Shown here: positions 11,347 through 37,837 of the stretch, in pieces
Layout: the number at the start of each line of letters is the position of its first letter
Numbering within the stretch: the first letter of the stretch is position 1
Origin: an uncultured Pseudomonadota bacterium
Lineage (GTDB): Bacteria; Pseudomonadota; Alphaproteobacteria; Rs-D84
Assembly: GCA_902795435.1 (NCBI GenBank)
Contig: CADBLE010000005.1
Coordinates: 2,758 to 66,757, forward strand
Length of the DNA: 64,000 bases
Reading direction: 5' to 3'
Made by a program: the position numbers and the translations under genes
Notes under the pieces: generated by a model
Told to the model about the DNA's origin: nothing
The model's database searches: none
The model's input: only the letters and a program-made list of their open reading frames with translations

Positions 11347-14300
11347 TTATTCTGCGCTAGCATCATATACATTGTATGTATTATTGTTATACAAAACATG
11401 CATTTTTTTACTAGATTCTGAATTTATCGTCAAATTCTGTTGACCCATATTCACATAATATGTCTTGCCACCAATTTCCACAGCCAAAGCAGGGTGGGTC
11501 AATTGTTCCTCTGACAAACACATTTTATCTGATTCATCGTTTCCAATACGTAAATATTTTTCTGTTTCGCATACTGATTGGATTGGGTTGTTATTATAAC
11601 CTTCTGGAACACAAACCTTTGCATTATCAGATAAAATATTATCATAAATTGCTTTTCTGACCACAGATTGTTTCACGGTTACACCCGAAATATAACTGCC
11701 ACAATAACCCGGACATCTTCTTTGGCAACCTTCTAGTCCGCCAGTTGCGATATCTGCAACATAAACCCATCTTGACAACGCAGGCGCACCCATTCTGCAC
11801 CAACAATATTGTCCTGTTCCAGTCAATTCATCTAAAATATCAGAACCAGAAGTAGCATTACCATTTACAATATTTCTGCTTGCGTCTGCCGAACAAAAAG
11901 CATCACCCTCAATAACAATCCCCGCCATTTCACGATTTTCTTGAACATTATCAAAAGTGGCACGCCAACGCATTGCATCTCGCATTTCTTCATAGGTATC
12001 TGGATGTACAGTTTGGTATGGTTCATAATCATCTGCATCTATTTTGTAATTGTTTATCCATGGAATATCTATTTCAATATACCCATTTTTACAAACACAT
12101 TCTTCACCGTTCCAATTTTCGTTTTCGGAACACAATGGAACCCAATGTGCATATAATACAATATCTTGGGAATTGTCTTCTGAAATATAAGTAACCTTTT
12201 CACCACCATTTGCACTGTCATACCATCCAATAAAATTATAACCTTCTTTTATTGGTTCACATAAAATTTCTTTACCCATGCCAATATTTACAGCTTCATT
12301 TTCACAACCAGAACCACCGTTTGTATAATCGTAGGTTATATTATAAGCATTATATAAACATTCAGATTCAGAATTTGCACCATCATATAATGTCGTTGAA
12401 CCATCTGGACATTTTGTACAAGAAACCTTTGGATTTAAATCAGATTCAAATCCTGTATTATATTTGTAATATCCAATTGGACATTTTGTAATCAAACTGG
12501 TTCCTTCAAACATTTCAAACATAGACATATTTGTATCGTCATAATTTACATTATTTATTGTTCCAAATAAATCAGTTGGTATAAATCCGTATGTTGTATT
12601 TGTATTATAATCTTTGAAACCAACAATTTGTGAATCATTATAAAATGTTTGATAGAACATCATCCATTCTGGTTCACCAGACAATCTGCCAAACAGATTC
12701 TTTGGCACATAACCAGACAAATTTGTACAACCATAGAAAGTTCCATAATACATCCAACCTTGTGCATCACCATAGATATCACCAAACAATCCATCTGGAA
12801 TTTCACCAGTTAAATTTTCACAACCATCAAATGTTCCAGAATACATATTTATTGCAGGATTCCCGCTAATATTTCCAAACAATCCAGATGGTATATTTCC
12901 ATATAATTTCTTGCACCCATTAAATGTATTGGAATACATAGCGATTTTTGGACTGCCATAAATACCCGCAAATAAATTTGCTGGAATTTCACTTTCAATA
13001 TTTTGACAGTTATAGAAAGTATTACTGAACATTGCTTCACGTGTTTCACCACTGATATCAGCAAACAAGTTTTCTGTAATTTCACCCGTTATTCCTGTGC
13101 AACCCGCAAATGTTCTGTAAAACATATAATCCACAGGCGCCCCATGAACACCTTCAAATATATTTTCAGGAATAGGTGTTGTAATTTTATCGCAATTATT
13201 AAATGTGTTCGCAAATCTTGGCTGGGTTGATAAAGAATCACCGTTACCAATTGTAGGAAATACCGCACCCAAAGAGCCACGAATTGCAATTATTCTATCG
13301 TATGTGTTTGTTTCGTTACTGTTTTTAACCATACCAAATGTAATTGCACCATAATAATCACTATCACCAATATAATATTCACTAACATTTTTACTGCCGA
13401 TAGAAATTGTATATGTTTCGCCAGACATATAATTTACATAATTATGTTCTATTCTGGTTGGTTCTGGGGTTGTAATTCGTATTTGTTCAATATTGCCATC
13501 GCCCCAATTTATGATATAGGTTCCAGCCGCAGAAATACGGAAAACAAATTGTGGTGTATATGGTTTAACATCTAATTCAAATGGTGATGGAACACATCCA
13601 TATTCGTCCATTGTACCAGACGCAGAAGTAGTTCCATTTGGACATAAAATCTTTGATTCGTCCGCATTTTCAATTGTCCAAACACCCTGTGGGCAATAAT
13701 AACCAATTGGACATTCACGACATTCTGTAACATCTTGACCGACATATAAATATTCACCCGCATAACATTCGTATGTTGTTACATGGCATGAAGATTCGCC
13801 CACAGAACCATATTCAGAATACAAACCGTTTGGACAGCGTCTGCAAGAAACACGACCGTCCCAGAATTCATCAAATTCAGTTTCAACCTGATAATAATAT
13901 TCTGGACAAGCGGTAACAATACCTGAATTTTCAAATATATTTAACATTCCGTCGCCCTGGTGATCATCATTATCCAAATTCGCAAACAAGTTTTCTGGAA
14001 CCCAACCAGACAAAGAATAAGTGTCTTTAAATGTTCTGCGGAATGATTTATTCTCCAAAGAACCACTGATATTAGCAAACAAATCTTGCGGTATTTGACC
14101 ACTTAAATTTTCACATCCACTGAAAGTAGCAGCAAATATACGTTCTTTTGGTTCACCAGAAATATTAGCAAACAAATTGTGCGGTATTTCCCCTGTTAAA
14201 CTTTTACAATTAAAGAAAGTTCCTGGGAACATGTGTGGAACGGTTGTTCCGCGGATATTTGCAAATAAATTTTCAGGTATTGAATATGTTGGAACACCAT

Positions 14301-16458
14301 TTTCAGAACCTAAATTCTTACACCCAGAAAAAGTTCCATCAAACATGTACGATGCTGGTTGCCCTGAAATATTACCAAAGAAATGTTCTGGGATAGGGCC
14401 AGTAATATTTTCACATCCCATAAATGTAGAATAGAACATATGTTCCACAGGTTGCCCACGTAATTCAGCAAATAAATCTTCATCAAGAGAACCTTTCAAA
14501 TTTGTACACCCGTTAAATGTTCTCCAAAACCTTGGTTGTGTTGATAAAGAATCACCGCTATCAATTGTAGGGAATATCTTTGCCAATGACCCAGAAATGT
14601 ATTCAATTGCGTTATAAGTATTTGTTTGACCAGACCAATTCGCAAAAGAAATTGCAGCCGTTTCTACACTGGTGCTGTACCCATCTGCCAAACCACCAAT
14701 TCTGATGGTTCTGGATTTAGTATCTGAATATGTATGATAGATGGGCAAAGATGATTTATCTGTTTTTATGTATTCAGTAACATTACCATCACCCCAATCA
14801 ACATAAAATCTTCCAGATGCAGAAATACGGAATTCAAAATAATTTATTGAATTTGTGCTTATATTAAATTTTGCATCTATACATTCATTATCGTATACAA
14901 ATTGGTTTGTTGCACATATCACAGGTGTTATTGTTCCACCACCACCATTACCACCAACGGCATCACAAGAATCATTAAATACTTTTTTTCTAAATTCTTG
15001 ATCATTAGCCACCATTTCTGCACACAAAGCAGGGCAATTCTTACGACAATATTCATTCTTTGCAGTCCAATTTCCAGAATATCCAGACACGATATTACCA
15101 TAAACTACCCATCTCTTTTTATCCAAAGAACAAGAACACCCACCATAAGTTCCAGTCAAAACACCAGTTTTTATATCACCACGTGTTTTCCATGCGTTTG
15201 CCGCACAAACCGCCCAACCATTTACAGTTACACCATTAAAATCAACACCCCAACCCTGGTCAGATGTATAATAATCAAGTTCTGCCATATATTGGTCATA
15301 AATTGCGGTTCCTTCGCCTGCGTTGCCAGCAGATTGCGCAGATTTAAGATTAAACGAACTGCTACTGCCTGTTAGCAACTGATATTCTTCACCATTATAT
15401 GAATAATACACATCTGTGCTTATTTCTTGGACAGAAGGTAATTCTGATGTTGGATAATAAGAAGAAGCATTTTCAACAACACCATCTTCGCAACTCAAAC
15501 TTGGTACCGATATATTATGTTCACATTCTTGGTTTATGCCATTCCAAGTATAATCATCACCACGTGCATTACATTCAGATTCATAATCATATCTGCATGT
15601 CTGAGATTCAGTATCCCAATAATAATACCCGCCACGATTATCACATTCTGTTCTGTGGTTTTTACATTCACCATTTTCCCAATAATACAATTCACCATTA
15701 TTTACACATTCAGATTCATAATCATATTTACATGTCTGGGATTCAGTGTCCCAATAATAATACCCACCATTATCTTCGCATTCTGATTCATAATTATATT
15801 TACACGCCTGAGTTTCAGTGTCCCAATAATAATATCCACCACGATTTTCACATTCTGCTTCGTAATCAAATTTGCATTCATTGGCATTTTCGTCCCAATA
15901 ATATCCTTCACTGCATGTTGTCGTTGTATTCGGCACACAAATTTCACCATTATTTAAAATATTTGTTCCGTAAAAACTGCGAATTGTTGTCGAATATGTC
16001 TTGTTTGCACATCTTTTTGAACATTCGTCAAACCAAACATTTGAACCTTCTGGGATTGTGCTTGATGGGGCAACCGCACCACCAGAATAAGTCCAATTTG
16101 TTTCAAATGGCGCAACAATACGACACCAGCAATTTTTACCGGTATATGTCCCCGCCGGCACACTGGCATCTATTGAACCCGTACCTTTGTCCCAACCCAA
16201 AGATTCCCCATATATAGTTCCAATATTTGTTGCTTCTGCGGTAAATGTTGAACCAGAATATGAATAAGTCGGGTTTTTAACATTAAAATCATATACATGT
16301 GATGTTTTTGTGTAACCACTATCACAAACACATTCTGAACCATTGTATGTTGAATTAGTAGGGCAATTTACATCTGCCGCACGAACATTTTCCATATTTC
16401 CAACAACGATAAATAATGTCGCTGTTAAAAATCTAAAAAACATACGTTTCAACAACAT
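11347..16458 (-). CDS. giant mosaic surface protein 1 (1703 aa): G..CWC cysteine modules, YYWD tandem repeats, two BspA/DUF285-like cassettes, Cys-rich modules, conserved C-terminal domain
   Basis: Uninterrupted 5.1 kb ORF in AT-rich DNA with signal peptide MFFRFLTATLFIVVGNMENVRA. Module map in nt: CWC 15931-16368; YYWD repeats 15523-15915; CSC variant 14959-15276; BspA-like cassettes 13924-14841 and 12493-13551; Cys-rich 13591-13911 and 12355-12483; one Listeria-Bacteroides-type repeat 12142-12348; CWC 11608-12132; C-terminal domain 11350-11574. It starts only 7 nt after the stop of the upstream giant ORF. Confidence 0.9.
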   Translation of the reverse strand: MLLKRMFFRFLTATLFIVVGNMENVRAADVNCPTNSTYNGSECVCDSGYTKTSHVYDFNVKNPTYSYSGSTFTAEATNIGTIYGESLGWDKGTGSIDASVPAGTYTGKNCWCRIVAPFETNWTYSGGAVAPSSTIPEGSNVWFDECSKRCANKTYSTTIRSFYGTNILNNGEICVPNTTTTCSEGYYWDENANECKFDYEAECENRGGYYYWDTETQACKYNYESECEDNGGYYYWDTESQTCKYDYESECVNNGELYYWENGECKNHRTECDNRGGYYYWDTESQTCRYDYESECNARGDDYTWNGINQECEHNISVPSLSCEDGVVENASSYYPTSELPSVQEISTDVYYSYNGEEYQLLTGSSSSFNLKSAQSAGNAGEGTAIYDQYMAELDYYTSDQGWGVDFNGVTVNGWAVCAANAWKTRGDIKTGVLTGTYGGCSCSLDKKRWVVYGNIVSGYSGNWTAKNEYCRKNCPALCAEMVANDQEFRKKVFNDSCDAVGGNGGGGTITPVICATNQFVYDNECIDAKFNISTNSINYFEFRISASGRFYVDWGDGNVTEYIKTDKSSLPIYHTYSDTKSRTIRIGGLADGYSTSVETAAISFANWSGQTNTYNAIEYISGSLAKIFPTIDSGDSLSTQPRFWRTFNGCTNLKGSLDEDLFAELRGQPVEHMFYSTFMGCENITGPIPEHFFGNISGQPASYMFDGTFSGCKNLGSENGVPTYSIPENLFANIRGTTVPHMFPGTFFNCKSLTGEIPHNLFANISGEPKERIFAATFSGCENLSGQIPQDLFANISGSLENKSFRRTFKDTYSLSGWVPENLFANLDNDDHQGDGMLNIFENSGIVTACPEYYYQVETEFDEFWDGRVSCRRCPNGLYSEYGSVGESSCHVTTYECYAGEYLYVGQDVTECRECPIGYYCPQGVWTIENADESKILCPNGTTSASGTMDEYGCVPSPFELDVKPYTPQFVFRISAAGTYIINWGDGNIEQIRITTPEPTRIEHNYVNYMSGETYTISIGSKNVSEYYIGDSDYYGAITFGMVKNSNETNTYDRIIAIRGSLGAVFPTIGNGDSLSTQPRFANTFNNCDKITTPIPENIFEGVHGAPVDYMFYRTFAGCTGITGEITENLFADISGETREAMFSNTFYNCQNIESEIPANLFAGIYGSPKIAMYSNTFNGCKKLYGNIPSGLFGNISGNPAINMYSGTFDGCENLTGEIPDGLFGDIYGDAQGWMYYGTFYGCTNLSGYVPKNLFGRLSGEPEWMMFYQTFYNDSQIVGFKDYNTNTTYGFIPTDLFGTINNVNYDDTNMSMFEMFEGTSLITKCPIGYYKYNTGFESDLNPKVSCTKCPDGSTTLYDGANSESECLYNAYNITYDYTNGGSGCENEAVNIGMGKEILCEPIKEGYNFIGWYDSANGGEKVTYISEDNSQDIVLYAHWVPLCSENENWNGEECVCKNGYIEIDIPWINNYKIDADDYEPYQTVHPDTYEEMRDAMRWRATFDNVQENREMAGIVIEGDAFCSADASRNIVNGNATSGSDILDELTGTGQYCWCRMGAPALSRWVYVADIATGGLEGCQRRCPGYCGSYISGVTVKQSVVRKAIYDNILSDNAKVCVPEGYNNNPIQSVCETEKYLRIGNDESDKMCLSEEQLTHPALAVEIGGKTYYVNMGQQNLTINSESSKKMHVLYNNNTYNVYDASAE
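15523..15915 (-). repeat. in-frame tandem repeat, about 6 units of roughly 63-72 bp (21-24 aa)
   Basis: Protein units are C[ED]NRGGYYYWDTE[ST]Q[AT]CKY[ND]YESE. On the plus strand the motif cccaataataata recurs at about 15615, 15677, 15750, 15822 and 15894. Confidence 0.9.
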
Positions 16459-16465
16459 TTCCTAC

Positions 16466-19400
16466 TTACTCCATACTCGCGTCATATACGTTATATATTC
16501 TTCCCATATATTCAACACGCATTTTCTTGGTTGTTTCCGCATTTATTGTTAAATTTCTTTGTCCCATATTTGCATAATATGTTCTGCCATTTACCTGTAT
16601 TGCCAAAGCAGGGTGCGTCTGTTGTTCTTCATACAAACATAATTTATCTGATTCATTTTCGCCAATTCTCAAATATTTGCCAGATGGACATACAACATGA
16701 CATTCTGAAATTGCACTTGCGCCGTCATATTCCGTTGTTGTGCCATGAGGACATTGTGTCTTGGATTCATCTGCGGTTTCAACCGTCCAGACACCTTCTG
16801 GACAATAATATCCAATTGGACATGTTCTGCATTCAGCAACATTTTCATCAACATACAAATATTCACCAGCATCACATTCAAATTGTTCTTCTACACAAGA
16901 ATTTTGACCAACAGAACCAGCGTCTGACAAAGTTCCAACAGGGCACTTTACACAATCTGAAATATTTTCATCATAGTAATAATTTTCATTACATTGTGTT
17001 GATTCATCTAATTCCCAAACAGCATATAAATATTTATCACCAATTGAACCTTGTTCTATTGTATATGACAATGTTGGGTTTGAACAATTTTCGGTTTCGC
17101 ACCAACCCATAAATATGTAATTTGTTTTTTCTGGGTTGTTCAATGTAAATGTCGCGGTTTCAACATTATAAGATGTTGGGTTTTCCGCATAACCACCGTA
17201 TAATTCATATGTAATTGTGTAATCTATAGGCATACAGATTATACCTGTCTGGAAATCATACATTTTTTGTCTGAAACTTGTCTTGTCGCGCAAATACGAA
17301 GCACAGTTGCTTGCACAATGATTCTTGCAAGACGCATCATCATCGCGATTATAACGATAACCCCACTTTGAAATACGGCTTTCGATATTTCCGCCTGTTG
17401 GGGTGAAATAGTTGATTTGACACCAACAATATTGACCAGATGTTTCAACCCCCATATAACTTGTATCTGCGGTTTCGCTATCTGGTGTGTTATTGCAAGA
17501 TGCTATACCTTTGATTACACCATAATCAAAATATGTTTCCCATTCGCCATTATTTAATGTGTTTCCTTCACAACTATCACTTGCACTGCCATAACAATGT
17601 TGCCCATCATTGCTTCTTGAAATATATGAATTTCCTTTCTTGCTGATATCAACATTAAACGCAGAAGTGGTTGATGTTGTCTTGTAATATCCCACAGAAC
17701 ATCCTTCATATACACATTGTTGTGTATTTGCATCCCATCTGTAATCTTCGCCACGTGACAAACATTCTGATTCATAATCATATAAACATTCATGTGTTGC
17801 AGAATTCCAATAATATCCATCGGCACAAGAGCACGCTGATACATAACCACCATCAGAATATCCATGTTCTGGACATGCAACACACACGCCACCAGATGTC
17901 TTGTAATAATCTTCATGGCAAGGTTCTTCAATCCAACGTGCGTATAATGTTATATCTGTTGCTAATGATGTATCTATACCTGTTATTTCTGTATTATTTT
18001 CATCAAACCAACCAACAAATATTTTGCCGTCTTGTACTGGTTCAACCAATGAACTAATAAACGGTGTAGTTACGTTATATTCATAAATAACATTTGTGTC
18101 AGATTCAAATTCACCACCGTTTAATACATAGTTGATATGATATACTATCGGTGTATATGCACAAGTATTTCTGTTTCTATATATTCTGCCAGAAACCACA
18201 TAATAATCACGGCTTGAACAATTGTTATAACAATCATTTTCTGATACAGAACCAGCATCAGACCAAGGATATGAAGCAGGGCAATTTTCTATGCCAGAAT
18301 CTGTTGTTTCAGAATATTCATAATTACCACCAGAACAATATTTGTTTTCTTCACATTGTGCACAAACAAGTGTTCCAGCAGGCAAATAATATCCCGCTTC
18401 GCATCGTACAGTTTTTGGCATCCATTGTGCATAAACAGTTGTATCATGCGTTGTTCCTGTTTTGATATTTGTTATAGCATTCATATAATCTGGTGCCAAA
18501 GACCAAACAAGGAAATCATAATTTGGTTTTACAACACTTGTTGGTAACGCAAAACTATCCAATCTGGTATATGTGGTTCTTACATCACTGCCATCTAGCC
18601 ATGTACCACCATTTAATTCATAGTTCAGGTTATATTCTTCCATTTCTATGTTTGCAACACATGTCGTTGTGTCTTCTGTTACAGGCATATATTCATCGGT
18701 AGCATGTTCAACACCATTACATGTCCACCCGATTAATGTATCAAGTGTTATTCTGCATTCTGTTGCGGTTGGTGGCAAAACAGTAAATCCAACATAATTT
18801 GTTCTGGTTATTTGATGATTATTACCACAATCATATACAACACTTCCTTGTGGTGTTGCGATATTCCATCTTGCATACAATGTTACATCACCAGTCATAC
18901 CACGTGCAAAACCATATACAACATTTGATAAATCAGCAGATGTTGACCATCCATCAAATGCATATTGATGTCTGGTGTCACCGTGATGGTTATATGTTAT
19001 ATTTGATGGATATATAACATCATCTTGCTTTGTATATGTATTTGGTGTCAGACCAGTAATTTCATATTCTGTGCCATCTTCTGCAACATCTTTATAGGTA
19101 ATATGATATGTTTCCAAAACTTCTGGTTCTGGTTCTTTCAATTTTACATTACATGTTATTGTTCCATCTTTAACAGTGACATTTTCATCCAGCGCATATT
19201 CTTGTTCATCACATATCCAACCAATTAATGTTTCTGTGTCTATACGACATTCTGTCGCAGTTGCAGGTGACACGGTAAATCCAACATAATTTGTTCTGGT
19301 TATTTGACGCCTGTTACCACAATCATATACAACGTTTCCTTGTGGTGTTGCGATATTCCATCTTGCATACAATGTTATATCACCAGTCATACCAGGTGCA

Positions 19401-24250: not shown

Positions 24251-24274
24251 GAAACCTTCCTCTTTCTTAAAGAT

Positions 24275-24739: not shown

Positions 24740-24775
24740 TCCTTTTTTTATTTTTTATATATTTTTATTCGATAA

Positions 24776-27700: not shown

Positions 27701-30700
27701 TGCACCAACACCGAATGTATAAGAGGTTGGGGCGTCAACATAATTTGTCGCACCATCCATATTGTTATATGTAATTGAATACCCAGCATTTTCCCATTTT
27801 GCATACAATACTTTATCGCCAGTTGTTGAACCTTGTTCAATTGTGTATGTAAGAACAGGGTTATCACAATCTGCATTGTTTTCGCACCACCCATTAAATT
27901 CATAGTTTGCCTTGGTTGGATTTTCCAATGTAAATGTTGGTGTTTCAATATTATACGATGTCGGGTTTGTGCCAGATACAACACCACCATATAATTCGTA
28001 TGTAATATCATAATTGATTGGTGTCCATTTTGCATATAATGTTATTTCATCGCCGTCAGTTAAATTTAATACATTATTAAAATACACAACTTTTTGATTA
28101 CCAGCTTGTGTTGTATGTATGAAATCTGTACCTGTGCCGTCTGCAGCACTATTCCAAGAAACAAAACTATACCTGTCTCTTGTTGGCCAATTTGAGCTAT
28201 TATACAGTATACTGCAACCTTGCCTATCTGTACAAATTGTATCAGCTGGAATATTTTGTACTTCACTGTTACCGGCGTTAGCATCAAAATGTATTGTTAC
28301 CTGTCGCAGCCATCTTGCATAAACAGTTACTGTGCCACTTGTGCCAGCATCTATTGTTAATGTCTTTGTACAATTTGCAGTTGCTTCAACATTATCACAC
28401 CATCCAACAAATACATAATGTTCTTTTGTTGGCTCAACCGGAGTGATTTCTTGATTATCGGTTGGGTTATATGTATATGTGTTTGGTGTTATGTTATTCA
28501 ATTCCACACCATCACTGTAATATTTAATATCATATGTATTTTTCATCCATTTTGCATATAATGTTTTATTACCTGTTAAATCAGTTATAGTAGTTATTTG
28601 TTCACCACTAAAATCAGATGTTTCATACCAACCGTCAAATACATAACCCGCAGGTGCATTATTTGGTTGATAATCGCTGATATGATATGCATTTGTGGTG
28701 ACATTAACACCGTCACTGGTTCCGTCAAAATCGTGTTGCTCGGTCTTTAATACGGTTGAACCATCCATAAATGTAACCGTTGCATAACATTGCGCAACCT
28801 GCCATGATGCTGGTTCAGAATCAGGGTAGGCATCTGGACATTGTTTATACAATTCGTCTTGATTTGCATAGAAAATACTATTGTTCATATCTACAATATT
28901 TGTAAATATGTTTGGAAAACTGTGATTCCCCATACCCGAAGCATACGCAGAAGCAGTAACACCTGTAAATTCATCTACATCTCCCGTTGATTTTGATTTA
29001 TCATAACTGTTTGTATAATATCCACGTTCTGCCGGGACACATGGACTACGATGTGAATCATTATATTGAATATCGCTAAAATCACCATTATATAAAGACA
29101 ATTCATATTCTGGGTTTCCTATATAATAACCCCTTTTACAACTTGCTATACCAACTGTTGCAGGAAAGCACAAATCATATAAACCCGTTATCGTATTGTA
29201 TTTACAAACACTTTCTAGATTATAAACAGTAGAATTTATACTATTATTTGCATCATAATCTGCAGAGATTTCTGTGTTATTAAACAAACTACCGGATAAA
29301 TCAACATTATCTGGTGAATTAGCATACATAAATCTTGCGTTACAATTTTCCAAACTATCCGCATATTCATCAGATTTAACACGCAATGCACCAAAACTTG
29401 AATTATCAACCGCTGGACATATTACGGTTTCTCTGACCCATTTTGCATATAATGTTTTATTACCAGTTAAATCGGTTGCAGTTGTAATTTTATTACCGCT
29501 GAAATCAGATGTTTCATACCAACCGTCAAACACATAACCTGCAGGTGCTTGTAGAGTTGGTTGATAATTGCTGATATGATATGCATTTGTGGTAACATTA
29601 ACACCGTCGCTGGTTCCACTGAAATCGTGTTGTTCTTCTTTTAATATAGTACCACCGTCCTTAAATGTTACCGTTGCATAACATTGTGCAACCTGCCATG
29701 ATGCTGGTTCAGAATCAGGGTAGGCGTCTGGACATTGTTTATATGCATCTGAAAGTACCCCTATATCCATTGTTCCAGGATTCACGACCACACCACGCGA
29801 AATACTACCCATAACCCCCATATTATTAGCCATTATTAGTTCTTGTGAGTCTAGATTGTCTTTTGCCATAATTAAATCATATGTTGCGGTATAATATCCA
29901 GGTTCTGCCGGCACACACGCAAATGAACTAAGTGGTGTTGTTGCAAGTATAGAACGAAAAGCTTCAGCTTCGCTCTGCGAATTATATTCCATTGGCAAAA
30001 CATGTGCATCAAGTTGTGTTTGTGTTAAATAATACCCAGATTTACAATATTCGACATATAAATCGTAACATCTGTCATATTGTGCAGTCGTTTGATTATA
30101 TTTACACAATAAATATAATCCAACATCATTTTTATTTATATCTAAATTTGTATTATATCCAGAAATTTGCGACACACTAACATTACTATACATAACAGAT
30201 GGATTTGACCCGAAAAGCAGAGGCACCATACAATCTTCAATACTGTCACTTTTTAGATAATCCCCACCAAGTGCTTTATTTATTATTATTGATTGCGCAT
30301 AATACGCACCGATATTTGTATTATCGAATATTGGACATTTTACGTTCCCTTGTGGTGTTGTTTCATTATAATCATAATCACGAGAATCTGGACAATAATA
30401 ACCATCATTACATTCTGCACATTCTCTGGAACCCGCTGGTAAATAATAACCCGCATCACAATGTATTCTTGTTGATTCTTCACAAGTTTGTGAAACGGTT
30501 GAATACAAAGATTCACGAAACTCTTGTGGGAAAAACGCAAAACCATATATACCACAAAAAGACTGACAATTTGTGTTACAACTCGAATCACTTCCTGCAT
30601 ATACCCATTGGGAAAGGGCGGTTTCACCGTTTAATTTTTCTATACGGCACCAACAATGATTACCGCTATCTGTAATGTTCGGATTACCAGTTTGATATAT

Positions 30701-33700
30701 TGTTCCGCCAGTTTCAGAACAACCAGCAGTACCGTTTATAACACCCAATTCGTTTTTAACTTCCCATGAACCAGGTTTTAAGGTTCCAAATATACTACTG
30801 TCGCTACAATCAGATGAATTTGTTTGTGTCAATAAATTCTCGTAATAACAGCTATCAACCTGTGGGTTTTTAACTTTAACATATTCCAAACTTGGATTAG
30901 AAGTATCAAAATCACGAGAGGTTAATTCATACCCACTTTGGCAAGACAATGATGAAATATCACATGCGTTTTTGTTATTCAATACACACGTAGGTGAACC
31001 ATAATACATTTTACATGTAGCGCTTTGTGGGGCATATGGTGTTTGCGCGTTTGTTATATGATAATACTCTTCACAATCTACAGAAGAATTTCTGTAACAC
31101 ATATAAATATTATCAGCGTTTGTTCCATCACGGAAACCTTCTGGACACAAAGAACATTCATTACCGTTTTTATATTCGCCCGCACCACAAGAATCTAAAC
31201 GCCATTTTGCATATAATGTTATTGTTGCGGTTGGTGTATATGGACTGCTAACCACATTGGTAAGATTGGAATCAGAATACCAACCATCAAATGTATAGTT
31301 TGCCTTGGTTGGTTCTGGCAAAGTTATTGCAGGCGAACCGTATGTGTAATCATAAGGTTCTATCGCATCACCACCATTTGTATTATATGTAATTCTATAA
31401 ACATCTGGGGAACAAACCTGATTGTTTAATGAACCGAACACCGCAGCACGGAACGCGAGGGCGTTTGAGTAGTCCGTGATCCGCATGTAGTCCTCACAGC
31501 TGCCCGCGCAGTGGACCGCACAATACGACGCGTTTCCATCGTCGCGGTTAAACACCCAAGGGGAAGACAAGCTCTGCAATGTGTCACCATTTGGTATATA
31601 GCCATCCAATTGGCAATAGCAATATTGTCCCGTACCTGTTTCATCCGTTAAATTACTTACAAAATGGTCAGGTTCGAATGTGTATCCATTTTGATCATAC
31701 CATGGATTCGCTACATTACGTGTTGAACATCTGCCATGTCCCTTGATTATTCCTTTTGTACCATAATCTACAGCAAATGCCATTGGGTCATTTGATATGA
31801 TTGTATTGGACATTCCGTATGTATCATAGTCGGTCCCAGTGCTATCGTTTGATGTATAGCCGTTAGCATCCGTTGTACCGATTGTTGACATAAGGTCTGG
31901 GGTTATATGATAATGTGTTTCACAACCCAAGGCAGAGCAGGTGTCAGGCATATCATAATAATCATTGCCACTTACAGATACAGAATGATCTATATTAGCA
32001 GTTGTACAAGCACGATAACATTCTTTTATATTTTGTGCATTGGTTCCATCACGGAAACCAGCCGGACACAAGAAACAAGCACCTCCATTTTCATATTCAC
32101 CCGCACCGCAAGAATCCGAACGCCATTTTGCATATAATGTTATTGAGCCCGTTGGGGTATATGGACTGCTAACCACATTGGTAAGATCGGAATCAGAATA
32201 CCAACCATCAAATATATTGTTTGCCTTGGTTGGTTCTGGCAAAGTTATTGCAGGTGAACCGTATGTGTAATCATAAGGTTCTATCGTATTACCACCATTT
32301 GTATTATATGTAATTCTATAAACATCTGGGGAACAAACAGAATCAAACAAAGCAGTTCGTAAACTCAGCGCCAGTTGACCACCATCACGCATTCCGTATG
32401 CACAATTAACAGAACAATTGTTTGCACATTGTCCTGCATTATCATAAGACGATAACAATAATGAACCCGAAGATATATTTTTAGTAACACCTGATGATGT
32501 ATAGTTATACAATTGACAATAACAGTTTGGACCAGAATTATCTGGCAAACTTGTGTTTATAACAGTATGATTTGTTCCTGTTTGGGTACTGCAAACACTG
32601 CGTCCTCTGACATACCCTTTGTCAGCCCCATAATATACGGCGAACGCATATTGAACACCATATATACCAGCAACAGCCGATGACAAACCACCGTAATTGC
32701 CAATTTGCCCACCATCAGATCCATTTGCAACATAATCTGCTCCCGCTTCACTAGTCCCCATTATTTCTGTCAAACTTTGGTCAGAATGATAATTTATCGG
32801 ACAAGATAATTGTGTCCATTGGGCTTGAACCCCAGTTGCAACACTGGATATTATTCCACCGATATATGTTGCCACACAACCATTAGACACAGTTGTATTT
32901 GCACCTTTTATTGTTCCATTTGCTAATTTCCAACCAGTAAATGTATATCCAGAACGAGTTGGGACAGATGGCAAAGTTAAATTTCCACCGTATATGCAAG
33001 AACCATTTGCAATCGTATTTCCACCATTTTCATCCCAATTTAATGTGATAGTGGCTGGTGTCCATTGTGCTACAATATATGTAGAAGTGCCACTTGATAC
33101 ACCTGTGTAAGTACTTGTACAACCACCAGATACTGTTTCACCGGCATTATGAATTGAATTGTCAGCCAATTTCCAACCAGTAAATGTATATCCAGAACGG
33201 GTTGGGGCAGATGGCAAAGTTAAATTTCCATCGTATATGCATAAACCATCCGCTATTGCAACGCCACCGTTTTCATCCCAATTTAATGTTATTTCTTCTG
33301 GAACCGGATTGAATGTCATACTCTTTCTAACCATACCTTGTTGATTGGCTAATTTTATCAATTGGTATTGTCCAGAATCTGGGGCAAATTGTGGTGCAAG
33401 CCCACCAAAACTCCATTTTTGACCATTCAACACTTTGTTCATGAAATATTCCACAGAATCACGTGAATAATCAGATAATTTATATCCCGCTCCGGTTGAA
33501 AGTTCCTTATCTGGATTGTTTTGCATACCAAAACATTCCATAAGTGTTTCTCCACTACAATTAGCAGAAAAATATGAACCAGAAGAAGGCACCTTATACG
33601 ACATCATAAACACCGCCAATGGACTGATATAAGCATATCCATCTGTGCTGCCTTTAGGGACTTGTATGTTATTCAAATATTTTGCAACATTTTCGTTTTT

Positions 33701-36700
33701 ACAAAAATCTGCGCCATATTCTTTTTCATCACAAACAAAAGCATACTTACCATTTGGTTCTATATTTAATATAAGTGGTGCGATATTACTTAAATGTTCT
33801 AAATTGTATTTCTTATCATTTATTATTAATTGTCCTGTCAATGGAATATAATCAGAAACCACATCGCCCGCAACGCACCCAATCCACACACCACCAGCAT
33901 CAAATCCAGCAGGATTTTGTTCTTTATCAACATAACCATTAAATGCAAAACCGTCACAATATGGTAATTCTGGTAAAACTGGTAAATCTAAACCTTCACT
34001 AATTTTACCGATAAATGTTACATATTCTGAAATATTATCTTTGTTTCCAATAAATGACGAACCAGCAGATAACAACGAATGATTGTTTTCCCATAATGCA
34101 TCTTTCGCTAAATCTGCTTTGTACTCTTTATCAATAAAAGTACCAATTCCAACAAAAGAATTCTGCGATGTTGCCCAATATCTTATTTCTGTATTATTCT
34201 TTTTGTATACATCATATGGATTAAGATATTCATCAACATATGTTAAATAAGAGTTTTTATTGTAACACCATTGGTCATCTTTAGATATCCCAGTATAACT
34301 GTTCATACAAACTTTTTCATCTGTATTACAACCAACATTTACAATATTCATTGGACAACGATATTGATTATCTTTTGATACACACTCTTCACCATTTTGT
34401 ATATATCCTGTATCACAATTATCTATTTTTATACTACAATGATCTCCTGTGCTTGATGTATTCATATATTCTACCCATGATGTATCTCCTATATATGAAC
34501 ATGTTGAATGTGGTGGACAATTCAAAGCAGGACAACTTTTTGTTACAGAACATGTACCATTGCTATAAATAGGATATTCGTCTGGACATTTTACACAACT
34601 GTTCGTTGTTTCATCAAAATATTCTGTTCCATCACAAATTATTTCTTCCCATTGTGCTGTAATAGATGTAGAAGTGCCACTTGATACACCTGTGTAAGTA
34701 CTTGTGCAACCACCAGATACTGTTTCGCCGGCATTATGAATTGAATTGTCAGCTAATTTCCAACCAGCAAATGTATATCCAGAACGGGTTGGGGCAGATG
34801 GTAAAGTTAAATTTTCACCGTATACGCATGAACCATTTGCAATTGTATTTCCACCATTTTCATCCCAATTTAATGTGATAGTGGCTGGTGTCCATTGTGC
34901 TTGGATATTTGTTGAAGTGCCACTTGATACACCTGTGTAAGTACTTGTACAACCACCAGATACTGTTTCACCGGCATTATGAATTGAATTGTCAACCAAT
35001 TTCCAACCGCTAAATGTATATCCAGAACGAGTTGGGGCAGATGGCAAAGTTAAATTACCATTTAATGTACAAGAACCGTTTGCAATTGCATTTCCACCAT
35101 TTTCATTCCAATCTAATGTGATAGTGGTTGATGTCCATTGTGCTGTAATAGATGTAGAAGTGCCACTTGATACACCTGTGTAAGTACTTGTACAACCGCC
35201 AGATACTGTTTCACCAGCATTATGAATTGAATTGTCAGCCAATTTCCAACCAGCAAATGTATATCCAGAACGGGTTGGGGCAGATGGCAAAGTTAAATCA
35301 CCATTTAATGTGCAAGAACCATCTGAAATTGCATTTCCACCATTTTCATTCCAATTTAATATGATATTTACAACAGTTGGTGTTGGACATATATTCATAC
35401 TCTCGTTAATGGCAGGATTGCTTCCATCACGCCAAGTTTGATAATAAAACATTGTTGCACATCCCCGAGCACAGTCGTTTTTACAATCAGAATAATTACT
35501 AATTTGCGAAGAATCTATATAAAACCAAGATGAATCCACTGGTGTTTCTGTGCCAGTAGAACCAGATTTCGTTTTTGTTACACGACACCAACAATTATTA
35601 CCAGTTTTAAGGTTTCTTTCTGTAACAAGTGTTGAATCCACCCCAGATTCAGTTGTTTTTCCCGTATTTATACATGTTGTTTCACCGTATAATACATTAT
35701 AATCCAAATCCATTACCATCCAAGTACTAGCATCTGCTGGAATTAAATTTGAACAATCATTCAAATAAGAATTCACACCACTAAATGAGCCATTAAACGC
35801 AGATTTACCAGCAAAACACCCAGAACCAGCAACAGAACCCAATACACTATCTTCATAATTTGTACATGTTTGTTCTTCCCATTGTGCTTGAATACTTGTT
35901 GACATTCCACTTGACACACCTGTGTAAGTACTTGTACAACCACCAGATACTGTTTCACCGGCACTTTTTATTGTTCCGTTTGCCAATTTCCAACCATTAA
36001 ATGTATATCCAGAACGGGTTGGGGCAGACGGCAAAGTTAAATTTCCACCGTATGTGCAAGAACCGTTTGCAACATCCCCACCACCATTTTCATCCCAATT
36101 TATTGTTATGGTTGCTGGTGTCCATTGTGCTGTAATAGATGTAGAAGTGCCACTTGACACCCCGGTATATGTTGCCACACAACCATTAGACACCGTTGTA
36201 TTTGCACCTTTTATTGTTCCGTTTGCTAATTTCCAACCAGTAAATGTATATCCAGAACGGGTTGGGGCAGATGGTAAAGTTAAATTACCATTTAATGTGC
36301 AAGAACCATTTGAAATTGTATTTCCACCATTTTCATCCCAATTTAATGTTATAACGACGGTTGGTTCCGGTTCTTTACCACCGCCTTCTGGATAATCATC
36401 AAATCTTTCTTTGTTTCCAGTATCTTCAACACCCGCACAATTTGAATTGCATTGGAATTTTGTCAGTGATGTATGATGCGGAATATTATCATAAGTTATC
36501 TCTGTTGATTTACCAGTATTATTATACAATATGTTTGCATGTAATCTGGTTGAACGTCCAAACGTTGAAGAATTTAACATTTTATGCAATTCTTTTTCTT
36601 GTGTCAAATTATATATAATCGCATCTTTGTCTGTTTGGCTAAATTTAACATCTTTGCCAACCTGATTAGTGAAATATTCCTCATACGCCATAAACATAGC

Positions 36701-37837
36701 GTTCAACATATCTTGCAACCCCAGGGCAGCAGGATATATTAAAGGCATTTCTTTACCATACATATAAAAAAGAGATTTATCATCCTGGGCTATTCCAGAT
36801 GTAGCAGAATAATCAGCCAAAACAATTTCGCTGACAACACCGTTTTTATCTTCAATAACAGCGGTCCATCCTTTTCCGAAAACTTCTCTTAAAATGAAAC
36901 GGTCCATACCAAAACCAGCGGCAATTCCAGCGTTTATAAACGGTGTTTGGTCTGTATATATTATTATATCATAAGATGCACCAGTATCAACACCATTACA
37001 TGATGTAACATATTTATCATTTCCAGTAAGTTTTGTTCCCATTGGACACAACGCTATTGGTGGAAGTTCTGTATCTGCAATAACACCCGCTTTTACCTGA
37101 TCTTCCACTGTTTCATTCAAAACAAATATATTTCCTTTTAAATCAACAGTACCATTTGTATTGTATTTATAATCTAAAATAGGTGTATCATAAATGTTGT
37201 ATTTAACACTGTTACCTCCTGATGTGGTCATGGAATTTGGATGTATCATATACCAAAAAGACGAACCAACCGAATGGTCTGATTTACAATCATCAACAAA
37301 ATTTAATTTCATCAAATCTTTGTATGAATCAACAGGACAAACATCTGTACTGCTTGATTTGATAGGAACAAAATGATCTGATGAATACAATAAATCTTTA
37401 ATGGTTGAACCAGATTTCTGTAAATAACTTCGTGCTGCAGTATATAAAGACCAGTCATGATATTCTGGGTATTTTGTCAAGAAATTAAAATACCCCGAGA
37501 TAACCATATATTCTATCAAAGCATCATTCTGTATATCGTTTAAAGCGATACAAGTATTACCGCCTTGCTGTCTCATTATATATCCCGCTTCACACTTCAC
37601 AACACAATTTTCAGAATTATTAGAAAGATAAAAATTGCAAGAATCACCCGAAAAAGCATTTAAAGACGAAAAAGACAACACCAACGCAAAAAGCATTGCT
37701 TTGATAACAGCAAAAATTTGGCGGTTTTTAGCCACTTTTAAGATTTTCCGTCCTTTCTTTATGTTTATCTTAGAAAAAAACAAAGGGGTGTGTAAAGGGA
37801 AAAATTTCGTGATTATATATAAATATATAAAATTCAT
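24776..37837 (-). CDS. giant mosaic surface protein 3 (4353 aa as maximal ORF; likely GTG start at 37735)
   Basis: Uninterrupted 13 kb ORF. Starting at GTG 37735 gives the signal peptide (M)AKNRQIFAVIKAMLFALVLSFSSLNAFS, homologous to the N-terminus of giant protein 2. Module map in nt: unique N-terminal region about 36359-37650; 243-bp repeat blocks 35873-36358, 34643-35374 and 32812-33297; CWC modules 35375-35872, 32330-32811, 31410-31930 and 30480-31010; unique region 33298-34642; a roughly 900-bp duplication at 28545-30340; BspA-like cassette 26570-27560. Many Listeria-Bacteroides-type repeats run to the very C-terminus. The C-terminal domain of proteins 1 and 2 is absent. Confidence 0.9.
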   Translation of the reverse strand: MNFIYLYIITKFFPLHTPLFFSKINIKKGRKILKVAKNRQIFAVIKAMLFALVLSFSSLNAFSGDSCNFYLSNNSENCVVKCEAGYIMRQQGGNTCIALNDIQNDALIEYMVISGYFNFLTKYPEYHDWSLYTAARSYLQKSGSTIKDLLYSSDHFVPIKSSSTDVCPVDSYKDLMKLNFVDDCKSDHSVGSSFWYMIHPNSMTTSGGNSVKYNIYDTPILDYKYNTNGTVDLKGNIFVLNETVEDQVKAGVIADTELPPIALCPMGTKLTGNDKYVTSCNGVDTGASYDIIIYTDQTPFINAGIAAGFGMDRFILREVFGKGWTAVIEDKNGVVSEIVLADYSATSGIAQDDKSLFYMYGKEMPLIYPAALGLQDMLNAMFMAYEEYFTNQVGKDVKFSQTDKDAIIYNLTQEKELHKMLNSSTFGRSTRLHANILYNNTGKSTEITYDNIPHHTSLTKFQCNSNCAGVEDTGNKERFDDYPEGGGKEPEPTVVITLNWDENGGNTISNGSCTLNGNLTLPSAPTRSGYTFTGWKLANGTIKGANTTVSNGCVATYTGVSSGTSTSITAQWTPATITINWDENGGGDVANGSCTYGGNLTLPSAPTRSGYTFNGWKLANGTIKSAGETVSGGCTSTYTGVSSGMSTSIQAQWEEQTCTNYEDSVLGSVAGSGCFAGKSAFNGSFSGVNSYLNDCSNLIPADASTWMVMDLDYNVLYGETTCINTGKTTESGVDSTLVTERNLKTGNNCWCRVTKTKSGSTGTETPVDSSWFYIDSSQISNYSDCKNDCARGCATMFYYQTWRDGSNPAINESMNICPTPTVVNIILNWNENGGNAISDGSCTLNGDLTLPSAPTRSGYTFAGWKLADNSIHNAGETVSGGCTSTYTGVSSGTSTSITAQWTSTTITLDWNENGGNAIANGSCTLNGNLTLPSAPTRSGYTFSGWKLVDNSIHNAGETVSGGCTSTYTGVSSGTSTNIQAQWTPATITLNWDENGGNTIANGSCVYGENLTLPSAPTRSGYTFAGWKLADNSIHNAGETVSGGCTSTYTGVSSGTSTSITAQWEEIICDGTEYFDETTNSCVKCPDEYPIYSNGTCSVTKSCPALNCPPHSTCSYIGDTSWVEYMNTSSTGDHCSIKIDNCDTGYIQNGEECVSKDNQYRCPMNIVNVGCNTDEKVCMNSYTGISKDDQWCYNKNSYLTYVDEYLNPYDVYKKNNTEIRYWATSQNSFVGIGTFIDKEYKADLAKDALWENNHSLLSAGSSFIGNKDNISEYVTFIGKISEGLDLPVLPELPYCDGFAFNGYVDKEQNPAGFDAGGVWIGCVAGDVVSDYIPLTGQLIINDKKYNLEHLSNIAPLILNIEPNGKYAFVCDEKEYGADFCKNENVAKYLNNIQVPKGSTDGYAYISPLAVFMMSYKVPSSGSYFSANCSGETLMECFGMQNNPDKELSTGAGYKLSDYSRDSVEYFMNKVLNGQKWSFGGLAPQFAPDSGQYQLIKLANQQGMVRKSMTFNPVPEEITLNWDENGGVAIADGLCIYDGNLTLPSAPTRSGYTFTGWKLADNSIHNAGETVSGGCTSTYTGVSSGTSTYIVAQWTPATITLNWDENGGNTIANGSCIYGGNLTLPSVPTRSGYTFTGWKLANGTIKGANTTVSNGCVATYIGGIISSVATGVQAQWTQLSCPINYHSDQSLTEIMGTSEAGADYVANGSDGGQIGNYGGLSSAVAGIYGVQYAFAVYYGADKGYVRGRSVCSTQTGTNHTVINTSLPDNSGPNCYCQLYNYTSSGVTKNISSGSLLLSSYDNAGQCANNCSVNCAYGMRDGGQLALSLRTALFDSVCSPDVYRITYNTNGGNTIEPYDYTYGSPAITLPEPTKANNIFDGWYSDSDLTNVVSSPYTPTGSITLYAKWRSDSCGAGEYENGGACFLCPAGFRDGTNAQNIKECYRACTTANIDHSVSVSGNDYYDMPDTCSALGCETHYHITPDLMSTIGTTDANGYTSNDSTGTDYDTYGMSNTIISNDPMAFAVDYGTKGIIKGHGRCSTRNVANPWYDQNGYTFEPDHFVSNLTDETGTGQYCYCQLDGYIPNGDTLQSLSSPWVFNRDDGNASYCAVHCAGSCEDYMRITDYSNALAFRAAVFGSLNNQVCSPDVYRITYNTNGGDAIEPYDYTYGSPAITLPEPTKANYTFDGWYSDSNLTNVVSSPYTPTATITLYAKWRLDSCGAGEYKNGNECSLCPEGFRDGTNADNIYMCYRNSSVDCEEYYHITNAQTPYAPQSATCKMYYGSPTCVLNNKNACDISSLSCQSGYELTSRDFDTSNPSLEYVKVKNPQVDSCYYENLLTQTNSSDCSDSSIFGTLKPGSWEVKNELGVINGTAGCSETGGTIYQTGNPNITDSGNHCWCRIEKLNGETALSQWVYAGSDSSCNTNCQSFCGIYGFAFFPQEFRESLYSTVSQTCEESTRIHCDAGYYLPAGSRECAECNDGYYCPDSRDYDYNETTPQGNVKCPIFDNTNIGAYYAQSIIINKALGGDYLKSDSIEDCMVPLLFGSNPSVMYSNVSVSQISGYNTNLDINKNDVGLYLLCKYNQTTAQYDRCYDLYVEYCKSGYYLTQTQLDAHVLPMEYNSQSEAEAFRSILATTPLSSFACVPAEPGYYTATYDLIMAKDNLDSQELIMANNMGVMGSISRGVVVNPGTMDIGVLSDAYKQCPDAYPDSEPASWQVAQCYATVTFKDGGTILKEEQHDFSGTSDGVNVTTNAYHISNYQPTLQAPAGYVFDGWYETSDFSGNKITTATDLTGNKTLYAKWVRETVICPAVDNSSFGALRVKSDEYADSLENCNARFMYANSPDNVDLSGSLFNNTEISADYDANNSINSTVYNLESVCKYNTITGLYDLCFPATVGIASCKRGYYIGNPEYELSLYNGDFSDIQYNDSHRSPCVPAERGYYTNSYDKSKSTGDVDEFTGVTASAYASGMGNHSFPNIFTNIVDMNNSIFYANQDELYKQCPDAYPDSEPASWQVAQCYATVTFMDGSTVLKTEQHDFDGTSDGVNVTTNAYHISDYQPNNAPAGYVFDGWYETSDFSGEQITTITDLTGNKTLYAKWMKNTYDIKYYSDGVELNNITPNTYTYNPTDNQEITPVEPTKEHYVFVGWCDNVEATANCTKTLTIDAGTSGTVTVYARWLRQVTIHFDANAGNSEVQNIPADTICTDRQGCSILYNSSNWPTRDRYSFVSWNSAADGTGTDFIHTTQAGNQKVVYFNNVLNLTDGDEITLYAKWTPINYDITYELYGGVVSGTNPTSYNIETPTFTLENPTKANYEFNGWCENNADCDNPVLTYTIEQGSTTGDKVLYAKWENAGYSITYNNMDGATNYVDAPTSYTFGVGATINGKPTREDYIFVGWCTDAQLQNCSYTQTIGTEATGDKEFWAKWEPVKFTLTTTPMGENDTYRFRISASGVFYVDCGDDGVLIDSDRWGDHVRSAGNTIDRTGNTTDATYGCKYTNAANKHEIRFSGSATGYNSNPASDSSYSAIDFAMSNSGVSTPKKIAGISGSLGAIFGTIGNGDSLSKQPRFIYTFSGVTNMLDTDIDDPNNPGKKYAIPPTLFNGVHGAPVNGMFKGTFNGCSGLTGTIPSNLFSGISGNPAPHMFSATFTDCTNITGTIPGNLFSGISGNPAPYMFNLTFENCRNLTGTVPGNLFAGISGDPATWMFLRMFNGCSGLEGFSDGTTTTEYIPESFLENITDDTSPNQVSYMFQYTNLKQYCPDGMYNSTREQFNDAGKPWCAFCPSGYTSIEGAVSNSSINMCFRDCPVNDSLGGTYIPESGGHAYYGENGDDISTCKYAYTISYELDGGVVSGTNPTSYNIETPTFTLFNPTKANHEFVGWCENDTDCDNPVLTYTIEQGSTGNKTLYAQWKLNVFNIKYYDGANELSEITPATYIYSDDSQTITPIEPEKRGYTFNGWCLNSDNCGDSQKTLVIVGGTIGDINAYAQWAPNVYNINYYDWENELGGVYPNTYTYSASENQTITPNAPIKNGYQFIGWCVGADDCEETINTLDIPADTIGNIDLYAQWVMTINVHFDKNIQKDVVGMPNDVICVDGQNCVSNQTPVLNNYEFNSWNLESDGSGNEIVKGENDEYDLSVLFDWSGVENVTLYAQWTPVDYTITYILDDGIVSGTNPTSYNVETPTFTLNNPTKNGYEFIGWCETENCANPEIEYSFDTSVGGNKTLYAIFTPIQYTIVFNANGGNGEKAPVTCYYDTNCDISNNEIERTGYDFMGWSRNTSGVEYPQTQSGISVFNLTNVPETIFVNAIWNANGLPLKYNYNDGTDIINDSCMYDTSFVPTVPTRPGYVFAGWDVTSE
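28545..30340 (-). repeat. two direct copies of a roughly 900-bp unit inside giant gene 3
   Basis: About 320 bp is near-identical at 28541-28860 and 29431-29760. It encodes YKQCPDAYPDSEPASWQVAQCYATVTF.DG.T.LK.EQHDF.GTSDGVNVTTNAYHIS.YQP..APAGYVFDGWYETSDFSG..ITT.TDLTGNKTLYAKW. The upstream parts of each unit are more diverged. Confidence 0.8.
32812..33297 (-). repeat. 243-bp (81-aa) repeat block A, 2 units
   Basis: Units are ITLNWDENGG...LTLPSAPTRSGYTF.GWKLA......TV S.GC..TYTG...AQW. The DNA motif aatttccaaccagtaaatgtatatccagaacg.gttgg occurs at about 32925 and 33167. Confidence 0.9.
34643..35374 (-). repeat. 243-bp (81-aa) repeat block B, 3 units
   Basis: The motif recurs at 34748, 34991 and 35234, an exact 243-bp period. 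The units are highly similar to each other and to blocks A and C. Confidence 0.9.
35873..36358 (-). repeat. 243-bp (81-aa) repeat block C, 2 units
   Basis: The same unit as blocks A and B, with the motif at about 35977 and 36226. Confidence 0.9.

Follow-up and report, generated by a model that had tools for sequence, protein, structure and literature searches.

The window studied here is a stretch of 64,000 nucleotides from contig CADBLE010000005.1 (assembly GCA_902795435.1), derived from an uncultured alphaproteobacterium of the order Rs-D84, and it contains a locus of three giant genes, named G1, G2 and G3. Their products are probably lineage-specific, expanded and fast-diversifying giant modular proteins, exported through the Sec pathway, which would form the binding surface of a small, metabolically dependent gut bacterium. 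Exposure at the surface and a role in binding the host or a partner are suggested by domain content, fast evolution and lifestyle. The genes are uninterrupted open reading frames (ORFs) arranged head-to-tail on the minus strand, with the positions and lengths given by an earlier sequence-only reading of the same DNA, and they span 26,491 nt, or 41.4% of the window. Since the frames stay open for 5–13 kb at about 36% GC, the composition of the window, chance ORFs are ruled out.

11347-16458, minus strand: G1, ORF of 1703 amino acids (aa)
16466-24250, minus strand: G2, ORF of 2594 aa, with a TTG start 3' of a AGAGGAAGG ribosome-binding site
24776-37837, minus strand: G3, ORF of 4353 aa; 4319 aa from the probable GTG start at 37735

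The start of G3 is most likely this GTG, which is preceded by an AAAGGA ribosome-binding site. Public gene calls place the start of G1 at a different position.

Modules outside Pfam and NCBIfam were defined by self-comparison and iterated hidden Markov models (HMMs). Pfam-type domains cover 11% of G1, 54% of G2 and 33% of G3, and family-specific modules cover 71%, 23% and 28%, which leaves 18%, 23% and 40% unassigned. Existing family names had been expected to describe the proteins only in part, and this is the case both for the Pfam-type coverage and for the public names of family members, which are generic ("InlB B-repeat-containing protein" or "hypothetical protein"). The modules described earlier as a shared, shuffled set (Flg_new repeats, cassettes, Ephrin_rec_like modules and a G..C[WY]C module, here CWC) were all recovered by profiles. 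They are arranged as follows, CTD being a small C-terminal domain:

G1, in order: signal peptide, CWC, YYYWD Cys repeats, CWC, cassette 1, two Ephrin_rec_like, cassette 2, Ephrin_rec_like, one Flg_new, CWC, CTD
G2, in order: signal peptide, about 20 Flg_new interleaved with 80-aa "G2 units", YYYWD repeats, CWC, Flg_new, two Ephrin_rec_like, CTD
G3, content: signal peptide, orphan N-terminal region, 22 Flg_new, four CWC, two copies of a 240-aa unit, one cassette

The Flg_new family (Listeria-Bacteroides repeat, List_Bact_rpt; PF09479) was assigned well above its curated cut-off of 27 bits, with scores of 48.7 for G1, 451.4 for G2 and 558.1 for G3, and TIGR02543 (cut-off 20.95) gave 26.8, 332 and 386 bits. 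Counted with an HMM built from the locus itself, the repeats number 1, 20 and 22, respectively.

The cassette is a unit of 300–380 aa, in which an N-terminal beta-sandwich carrying the motifs F.FRISA.G.FYVDWGDG ... GSLG..FPTIGNGDSLSTQPRF is followed by a solenoid of five to seven repeats of the type MF..TF.GC.NLTG.IP..LF..ISG.P... Three copies in the window conform to the family defined here by the sandwich motifs and five to seven 31-residue repeats, and their positions, two in G1 and one in G3, agree with those proposed from the letters of the sequence.

13966-14868, minus strand: cassette 1, G1 aa 531-831, six 31-residue repeats
12451-13581, minus strand: cassette 2, G1 aa 960-1336, seven 31-residue repeats; the copy that was modelled, missing in the orthologue of a sister genome (L006, below)
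26537-27553, minus strand: cassette of G3, aa 3429-3767, five repeats

The repeat length had been put at 26 residues, but the measured period is 31 in 31 of 40 spacings. Canonical leucine-rich repeat (LRR) classes have periods of 20–29 residues. The label "BspA/DUF285-like", under which the cassettes had first been described, was rejected together with LRR_5: neither DUF285, LRR_5 nor any other LRR profile gave a match when isolated cassettes (E ≤ 1) and eight copies (E ≤ 10) were scanned, the period differs, and no LRR fold is among the 50 Foldseek matches listed for the cassette model. BspA-type LRR (LRR_5, PF13306) and DUF285 (PF03382) proteins of Tannerella, Treponema, Mycoplasma and gut protists share the hydrophobic "MF..F.GC..L" core in a solenoid and are likewise surface proteins from organisms associated with the gut, but these families lack the conserved N-terminal beta-sandwich that belongs to the cassette. 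The resemblance is thus at the motif level only. Among PDB sequences, the cassette profile matched only the plant LRR receptor FLS2, weakly and through "NLTGxIP" (whole-sequence E 0.004, domain E 0.4).

Structure prediction, which had been proposed as a check, was performed on the cassette and the CTD and was confident for both, and neither model has a fold match in the PDB by Foldseek. For cassette 2, AlphaFold2 with an alignment of eight copies gave a predicted local distance difference test (pLDDT) of 89.1 and a predicted template-modelling score (pTM) of 0.88. The model consists of an N-terminal beta-sandwich, a solenoid of low secondary structure and a terminal Cys knot. No PDB match was obtained at E ≤ 0.001; local matches related the sandwich to Ig-like and sugar-binding-type domains, and the Cys knot to tumour necrosis factor receptor 1 (TNFR1; 1ncf, probability 0.99).

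This last match is in line with the Cys-rich modules identified by profile as Ephrin_rec_like (GCC2_GCC3, PF07699), for which G1 (31.8 bits) and G2 (24.3 bits) exceed the cut-off of 23.1 bits and the G3 copy scores 13.5 bits. Thus, of the domains that had been suggested for HMM annotation, Flg_new and GCC2_GCC3 passed their curated cut-offs, and PKD gave no match in whole proteins or isolated segments. The Ephrin_rec_like modules follow each cassette and precede the CTD, as connectors.

12358-12489, 13594-13914 and 16700-16999: Ephrin_rec_like modules

The Ephrin_rec_like/TNFR-type family is mainly eukaryotic, and here it appears as a short connector in bacterial proteins. Acquisition from a eukaryotic host, or mimicry of it, is possible for these modules.

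The CWC module has a core of about 95 aa with the pattern G..C[WY]C ... W ... C...C...C, present in three copies in G1, one in G2 and four in G3 according to the iterated HMM, and isolated segments had no match in Pfam.

15934-16215, 14953-15225 and 11608-11913 (copy 3), minus strand: CWC in G1
17231-17515, minus strand: CWC in G2
35384-35692, 32321-32611, 31409-31747 and 30479-30739, minus strand: CWC in G3

Since ORFs consisting of CWC alone occur in other loci, the module is probably an independently folding unit. These stand-alone ORFs, of 126–181 aa, are found at L025 2548-3024, L032 16265-16801, L038 20351-20731 and L040 255-800. Other repeats of the locus include a 27-aa YYYWD Cys repeat in G1 and G2, the 80-aa unit of G2 mentioned above and a duplicated unit in G3, for which one relative (P0035) was found.

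28736-30343, minus strand: duplicated 240-aa unit of G3, aa 2499-2736 and 2805-3034, 35% identical, with a Flg_new repeat after each copy

A C-terminal domain had been attributed to all three proteins. It was confirmed in G1 and G2, and G3 lacks it, ending instead in a truncated Flg_new repeat.

11353-11574, minus strand: CTD of G1, aa 1629-1702; all-beta domain of about 70 aa that forms the extreme C-terminus, defined by its own HMM
16472-16693, minus strand: CTD of G2, aa 2520-2593, 67% identical to the CTD of G1

The AlphaFold2 model of the CTD (pLDDT 92.4) is a small, soluble, six-stranded all-beta domain, for which no match was found among PDB sequences or, by Foldseek, to any PDB chain. 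Profile search returned unnamed short fragments only, with no named relatives. The domain is well conserved across very different architectures. Of the best 154 representatives of the cassette family, 42 carry it, mostly at the extreme C-terminus.

The unassigned parts of G3 are concentrated in aa 36-496, 1050-1516 and 2211-2498, none of which matched Pfam at E ≤ 1. No relatives were found among 5.8e9 proteins, two JGI metagenome scans and PDB sequences, apart from P0114 for the central region.

36350-37732, minus strand: N-terminal orphan region of G3, aa 36-496, without relatives
33290-34690, minus strand: central orphan region of G3, aa 1050-1516, with a relative (P0114) only for the first 100 aa or so, which are Cys-rich

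Signal peptides, claimed earlier for all three proteins, are present by sequence rules. Cleavage is predicted between NMENVRA and AD in G1, after IKAMLFALVVPFVMNPVFA in G2 (VFA followed by DS), and after MAKNRQIFAVIKAMLFALVLSFSSLNAFS in G3 when read from the GTG at 37735 (AFS followed by GD), the latter signal peptide being of the classical kind and a paralogue of the one in G2. Among family ORFs whose 5' end is intact, 64 of 69 have signal-peptide-like N-termini by a crude rule, vs. 58 of 215 control ORFs taken from those loci. The Cys content of the giant proteins, 3.4–4%, suggests oxidative (disulphide) folding outside the cytoplasm. Profile scans of G1–G3 for an autotransporter barrel, a YadA anchor, a two-partner secretion (TPS) domain, RTX repeats or a type I secretion signal, a type IX secretion system (T9SS) tail and a lipobox were all negative. 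A linked transporter or sorting partner was also rejected: when the neighbours of 74 cassette loci were clustered, no gene family recurred in more than nine loci, the annotated top families being housekeeping and the others having no Pfam match. This agrees with the earlier statement that no dedicated secretion, transposase or integrase genes flank the locus, since none is encoded anywhere in the 64-kb window. The CTD is the sole candidate handle for surface attachment, and a role in sorting or anchoring may be proposed for G1 and G2.

Judged from its proteins, the source of the window is closely related to Candidatus Enterousia (order Rs-D84). RuvB is 85–88% identical to that of Candidatus Enterousia metagenome-assembled genomes (MAGs), and the alphaproteobacterial regulator GcrA is encoded. 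SecA and DnaE are 96% and 97% identical to those of the sheep-rumen MAG SRR873606_bin.79 (L006), and a SecA-bearing ENA metagenome contig (L001) is 99.99% identical to positions 1-18977 of the window. AUXO01, the assembly with the closest relative, is a sheep rumen metagenome (PMC4158751). Enterousia and Rs-D84 genomes measure 0.75–1.0 Mb, which together with GcrA and RuvB bears out the assumption of a reduced alphaproteobacterial genome. They lack the tricarboxylic acid cycle, respiration and standard transporters, and a partner-dependent life on metabolites from other cells has been proposed for the order, which is widespread in human, ruminant, horse and chicken guts (PMC12306168). Fractionation of rumen fluid by size and density, used to reach small-genome bacteria, has also yielded Rs-D84 (PMC8992543). 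The giant proteins are not mentioned in the Enterousia and Rs-D84 papers cited here.

Direct sequence search with G1, limited by a word prefilter, yielded just four real relatives. When the cassette profile was run exhaustively with HMMER, it gave 2568 cluster representatives at E ≤ 1e-3, of which 881 also pass E ≤ 1e-30; many are giants, and family proteins reach 7626 aa in length and contain as many as 25 cassette stretches. In a scan of species-representative genomes, 74 cassette loci were found, and all 74 are in gut or rumen alphaproteobacterial MAGs, many of them Candidatus Enterousia sp., from hosts including human (Hadza), sheep, goat, buffalo, yak, deer and horse. As far as tested, the family is therefore confined to gut and rumen Alphaproteobacteria of the Candidatus Enterousia/Rs-D84 group. 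Larger members than those of the window occur (L016 2495-21085, L013 2-12334, L026 1-11925, and NCBI MBO4480294.1 with 6326 aa), and several MAGs contain at least three separate family loci, e.g., JAZNBN01 and JAFRSF01.

Comparison with related genomes, recommended at the outset, revealed modules gained and lost between orthologues. Identity to the L006 orthologues is 77–80% for G1 and 56–60% for G2, vs. the 96% and 97% of SecA and DnaE. Synonymous divergence (dS) from L006 is similar for all genes, between 0.59 and 0.90. The ratio of nonsynonymous to synonymous divergence (dN/dS) is 0.18 for G1 and 0.35 for G2 vs. 0.03–0.04 for secA, dnaE and rsmH, and the dN of the giant genes is 6–15 times that of housekeeping genes. 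The G1 orthologue of L006 lacks about 750 aa, comprising cassette 2, Ephrin_rec_like, Flg_new and CWC, a block which is kept in the more distant P0003, located in a different genomic context. The view of these proteins as mosaics of a shuffled module set is supported by this loss and by the module maps. The dN/dS values, the intact ORFs and the module insertions and deletions indicate that the genes are maintained by selection while diversifying fast. The position between ruvB-tol and secA-dnaE recurs in the genus: a cassette gene stands beside secA in L022, and another downstream of ruvB-tolQ-tolA in L042.

In the mechanism that we propose, G1–G3 would be three paralogous proteins forming the outer binding layer of the cell. 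Arrays of Flg_new beta-repeats may act as long stalks or spacers that present binding modules to the surface of a partner; the candidate binding units are the cassettes, the TNFR/ephrin-receptor-like Cys knots and the CWC modules, and candidates for the partner are other microbes, protists and host mucus. G2 and G1 would be co-transcribed, and G3 would be transcribed alone, divergently from rnpB. Amino acids would be substituted fast, and whole modules gained, lost and duplicated, so that the repertoire diversifies while the ORFs stay intact.

Several points weigh against this explanation. The surface location is a proposal drawn from sequence, and G1–G3 have no recognisable device for translocation across, or anchoring in, the outer membrane; since such parts are absent and no transporter is linked, a periplasmic or released location is possible. 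A sorting model based on the CTD does not apply to all three proteins, as G3 has none. The overall dN/dS is below 1, so that some of the acceleration could be due to relaxed constraint alone. The interior of G3 is supported by one assembly alone. Finally, the partner is not necessarily a protist, because flagellate-free higher termites also harbour Rs-D84 (PMC11257099).

A more far-reaching version is conceivable but unlikely: cassette, CWC and CTD would constitute an unrecognised surface-display system, with the CTD read by some outer-membrane machinery, and the giants would form an episymbiotic attachment organelle like that of Patescibacteria, of independent origin in Proteobacteria.

A protective coat is an unlikely rival account of the locus. 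The proteins would then be an S-layer- or glycocalyx-like shield or a released matrix against phages, protozoal grazing or host factors, and their fast evolution would reflect escape from phages or antibodies. Exported, very large, repetitive and fast-evolving proteins fit a coat as well as a binding layer, many paralogues are present per genome, and no specific ligand-binding domain was found in the orphan regions with Pfam or PDB sequences. However, it is binding proteins, rather than lattices that self-assemble, which typically contain Flg_new repeats, solenoids and TNFR-like knots, and the architectures differ greatly among paralogues and sister genomes, unlike a conserved lattice protein. 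Coat and adhesin roles are compatible and not mutually exclusive.

Delivery of effectors or toxins appears less likely still. By analogy with the giants of predatory Omnitrophota, the repeats would serve as a stalk, and the orphan regions of G3 would carry enzymatic or toxic activities to extract nutrients. About 40% of G3 is unassigned and without relatives in the databases searched, and a lineage without standard transporters must obtain metabolites from other cells (PMC12306168). Nevertheless, no hydrolase, toxin or peptidase profile matched at E ≤ 1 and no PDB sequence matched; no co-oriented immunity-like gene was found, the small gene downstream of G3 being convergent; and the C-terminal domain is conserved, unlike the polymorphic ends of polymorphic toxins.

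An assembly artefact or decay, in which the ORFs and especially G3 would be chimeras of repeat collapse or mis-joining or else non-functional relics, is very improbable, despite the break of L001 at window position 18977 and of L006 at the 3' end of G3, the occurrence of the G3 interior in no other data set searched, and the truncated repeat that ends G3. Exact DNA repeats in the locus do not exceed 81 bp, so that longer reads or k-mers resolve it unambiguously. Internal repeats are at most 92% identical, and the frames remain open for 5–13 kb at 36% GC. L001 reproduces G1 and the 3' third of G2 at 99.99% identity in an independent contig. L006, from a different sample, contains an intact G2 orthologue of 2622 aa with 20 Flg_new repeats and a CTD, and a G1 orthologue of 947 aa separated from it by 7 nt, as in the window. 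Moreover, the L006 contig begins with …PVPTRTGYVFAGWNVSAE and a stop codon, matching the unusual G3 end …TVPTRPGYVFAGWDVTSE and its stop, and the conserved spacer follows. With these two contigs, G1, G2 and the 3' end of G3 are independently confirmed, and dN/dS values of 0.18–0.35 correspond to purifying selection, in contrast to decay. Two independent short-read contigs thus end in or at giant genes (L001 at 18977, L006 at its position 1), and assemblies may be broken here by variation between strains in these fast-evolving genes.

Among known systems, the binding-surface proteins proposed here resemble Flg_new surface proteins, which are likewise giant, repetitive, exported and found in the gut; the 43 repeats of the locus are far above the curated cut-offs. 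Such surface proteins include Flg_new-rich giants from gut Clostridia, and giants of the gut that carry the repeat have been interpreted as cell–cell adhesion proteins (bioRxiv 10.1101/2023.11.21.568195). Unlike them, the present proteins belong to a diderm alphaproteobacterium with a genome below 1 Mb, have no internalin LRR/inter-repeat (IR) region, LPXTG or GW anchor, and are explained by Flg_new to only 11–54% each, the remainder being lineage-specific modules without a profile. Class 1 internalins (InlA, InlH; NF033189, NF033188) were rejected, with 21 bits vs. cut-offs of 1600 and 1050, as only the B-repeat aligns. The Ephrin_rec_like/TNFR Cys modules resemble their namesakes by profile in G1 and G2 and by the local alignment to TNFR1 (1ncf).

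Giant adhesins of Gram-negative bacteria (LapA, SiiE and MpIBP, FHA-type proteins, rickettsial Sca) are also very large repetitive proteins of diderms, thought to extend binding modules. The RTX adhesins of type I secretion systems (T1SS) differ in that no RTX (HemolysinCabind) match was obtained here, Sec signal peptides are present, and transporter genes are found neither in the window nor recurrently in the 74 loci. Sec signal peptides and a Cys content of 3.4–4% are atypical of T1SS substrates. The locus does not belong to the two-partner secretion TpsA proteins, having no TPS domain (PF05860) and no Omp85-type neighbour, nor to autotransporters or trimeric autotransporters, since neither the PF03797 barrel nor the PF03895 YadA anchor was detected and the CTD model is a small soluble domain. 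The Por_Secre_tail of the T9SS in Bacteroidota is similarly an all-beta domain of about 70 aa at the extreme C-terminus of Sec-exported, often giant, modular proteins. However, the CTD did not match NCBIfam TIGR04183 or TIGR04131, had no Foldseek match and comes from an alphaproteobacterial host, so that it falls outside this family and a functional analogy would be speculative.

Giant repetitive adhesin-like proteins are known already, including the Flg_new-rich giants of mammalian guts (bioRxiv 10.1101/2023.11.21.568195). The new elements here are the module set, the host lineage and the lack of a recognisable outer-membrane export device. Three domain families without a Pfam entry, namely the 31-residue-solenoid cassette, CWC and CTD, are ready for profiles, and two of them (cassette and CTD) have confident models without a PDB relative by Foldseek. 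The locus alone would represent about 3% of a genome below 1 Mb, and related genes occur several times per MAG, which makes the giant proteins the most obvious candidates for contact with a partner. The families offer a handle for annotating thousands of "hypothetical" giant proteins of gut metagenomes, and for designing baits or antibodies to find the partner of Rs-D84. They also raise the question of how a minimal diderm without a recognisable secretion system exports disulphide-rich proteins of 4000 residues.

As described earlier, the locus lies between secA and rnpB/tol genes, and G2 and G1 are separated by a measured 7 nt.

8552-11182: secA, with dnaE alongside, the downstream flank of the giant genes
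24251-24775: intergenic region between G3 and G2, 525 nt, holding the G2-G1 promoter region and a 70-aa gene on the plus strand
24304-24275, minus strand: predicted G2-G1 promoter, TTGATA-18-TACAAT
37736-37871: predicted divergent promoter region of 136 nt between the GTG start of G3 and rnpB
37872-38182: rnpB (Rfam, 186 bits), the upstream flank, followed by a tolA-like gene, tolQ and ruvB

The rnpB gene is divergent from G3, at about 136 nt from the likely GTG start and 34 nt from an upstream in-frame ATG. The remaining genes of the window are housekeeping (argS, rplM, rpsI, tig, thyA, rpsA, an adenylate-kinase-family gene, corA, a two-component pair and GcrA). An origin from a mobile element or prophage was rejected in view of the housekeeping flanks and the synteny conserved across the genus.

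For the 70-aa gene (24527-24739, plus strand; MKSNITELKPSD…), which has no Pfam match, a GGGAGG ribosome-binding site was recognised, together with a terminator-like hairpin (24724-24746). The gene is convergent with G3 and divergent from G2. In L006 it is 93% identical, whereas the adjoining G2 is 56–60% identical, and L022 has a 33% homologue, flanked by a cassette gene and by secA. A role as a small conserved partner of the giant genes, or as their regulator, is possible.

Six further ORFs of the window, of 244–694 aa, have no Pfam match (including 42076-43035, 46764-47498, 50697-52687, 58181-60265 and 61530-62399). This is consistent with the 10–19% of proteins per MAG that could be annotated in the rumen fractionation study that included Rs-D84 (PMC8992543). 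An ORF of 826 aa at 517-2997 on the minus strand, also without a match in Pfam or NCBIfam, is lineage-specific, with homologues in L006 (83%), L066 (46%, Cys-rich), L043 and L037.

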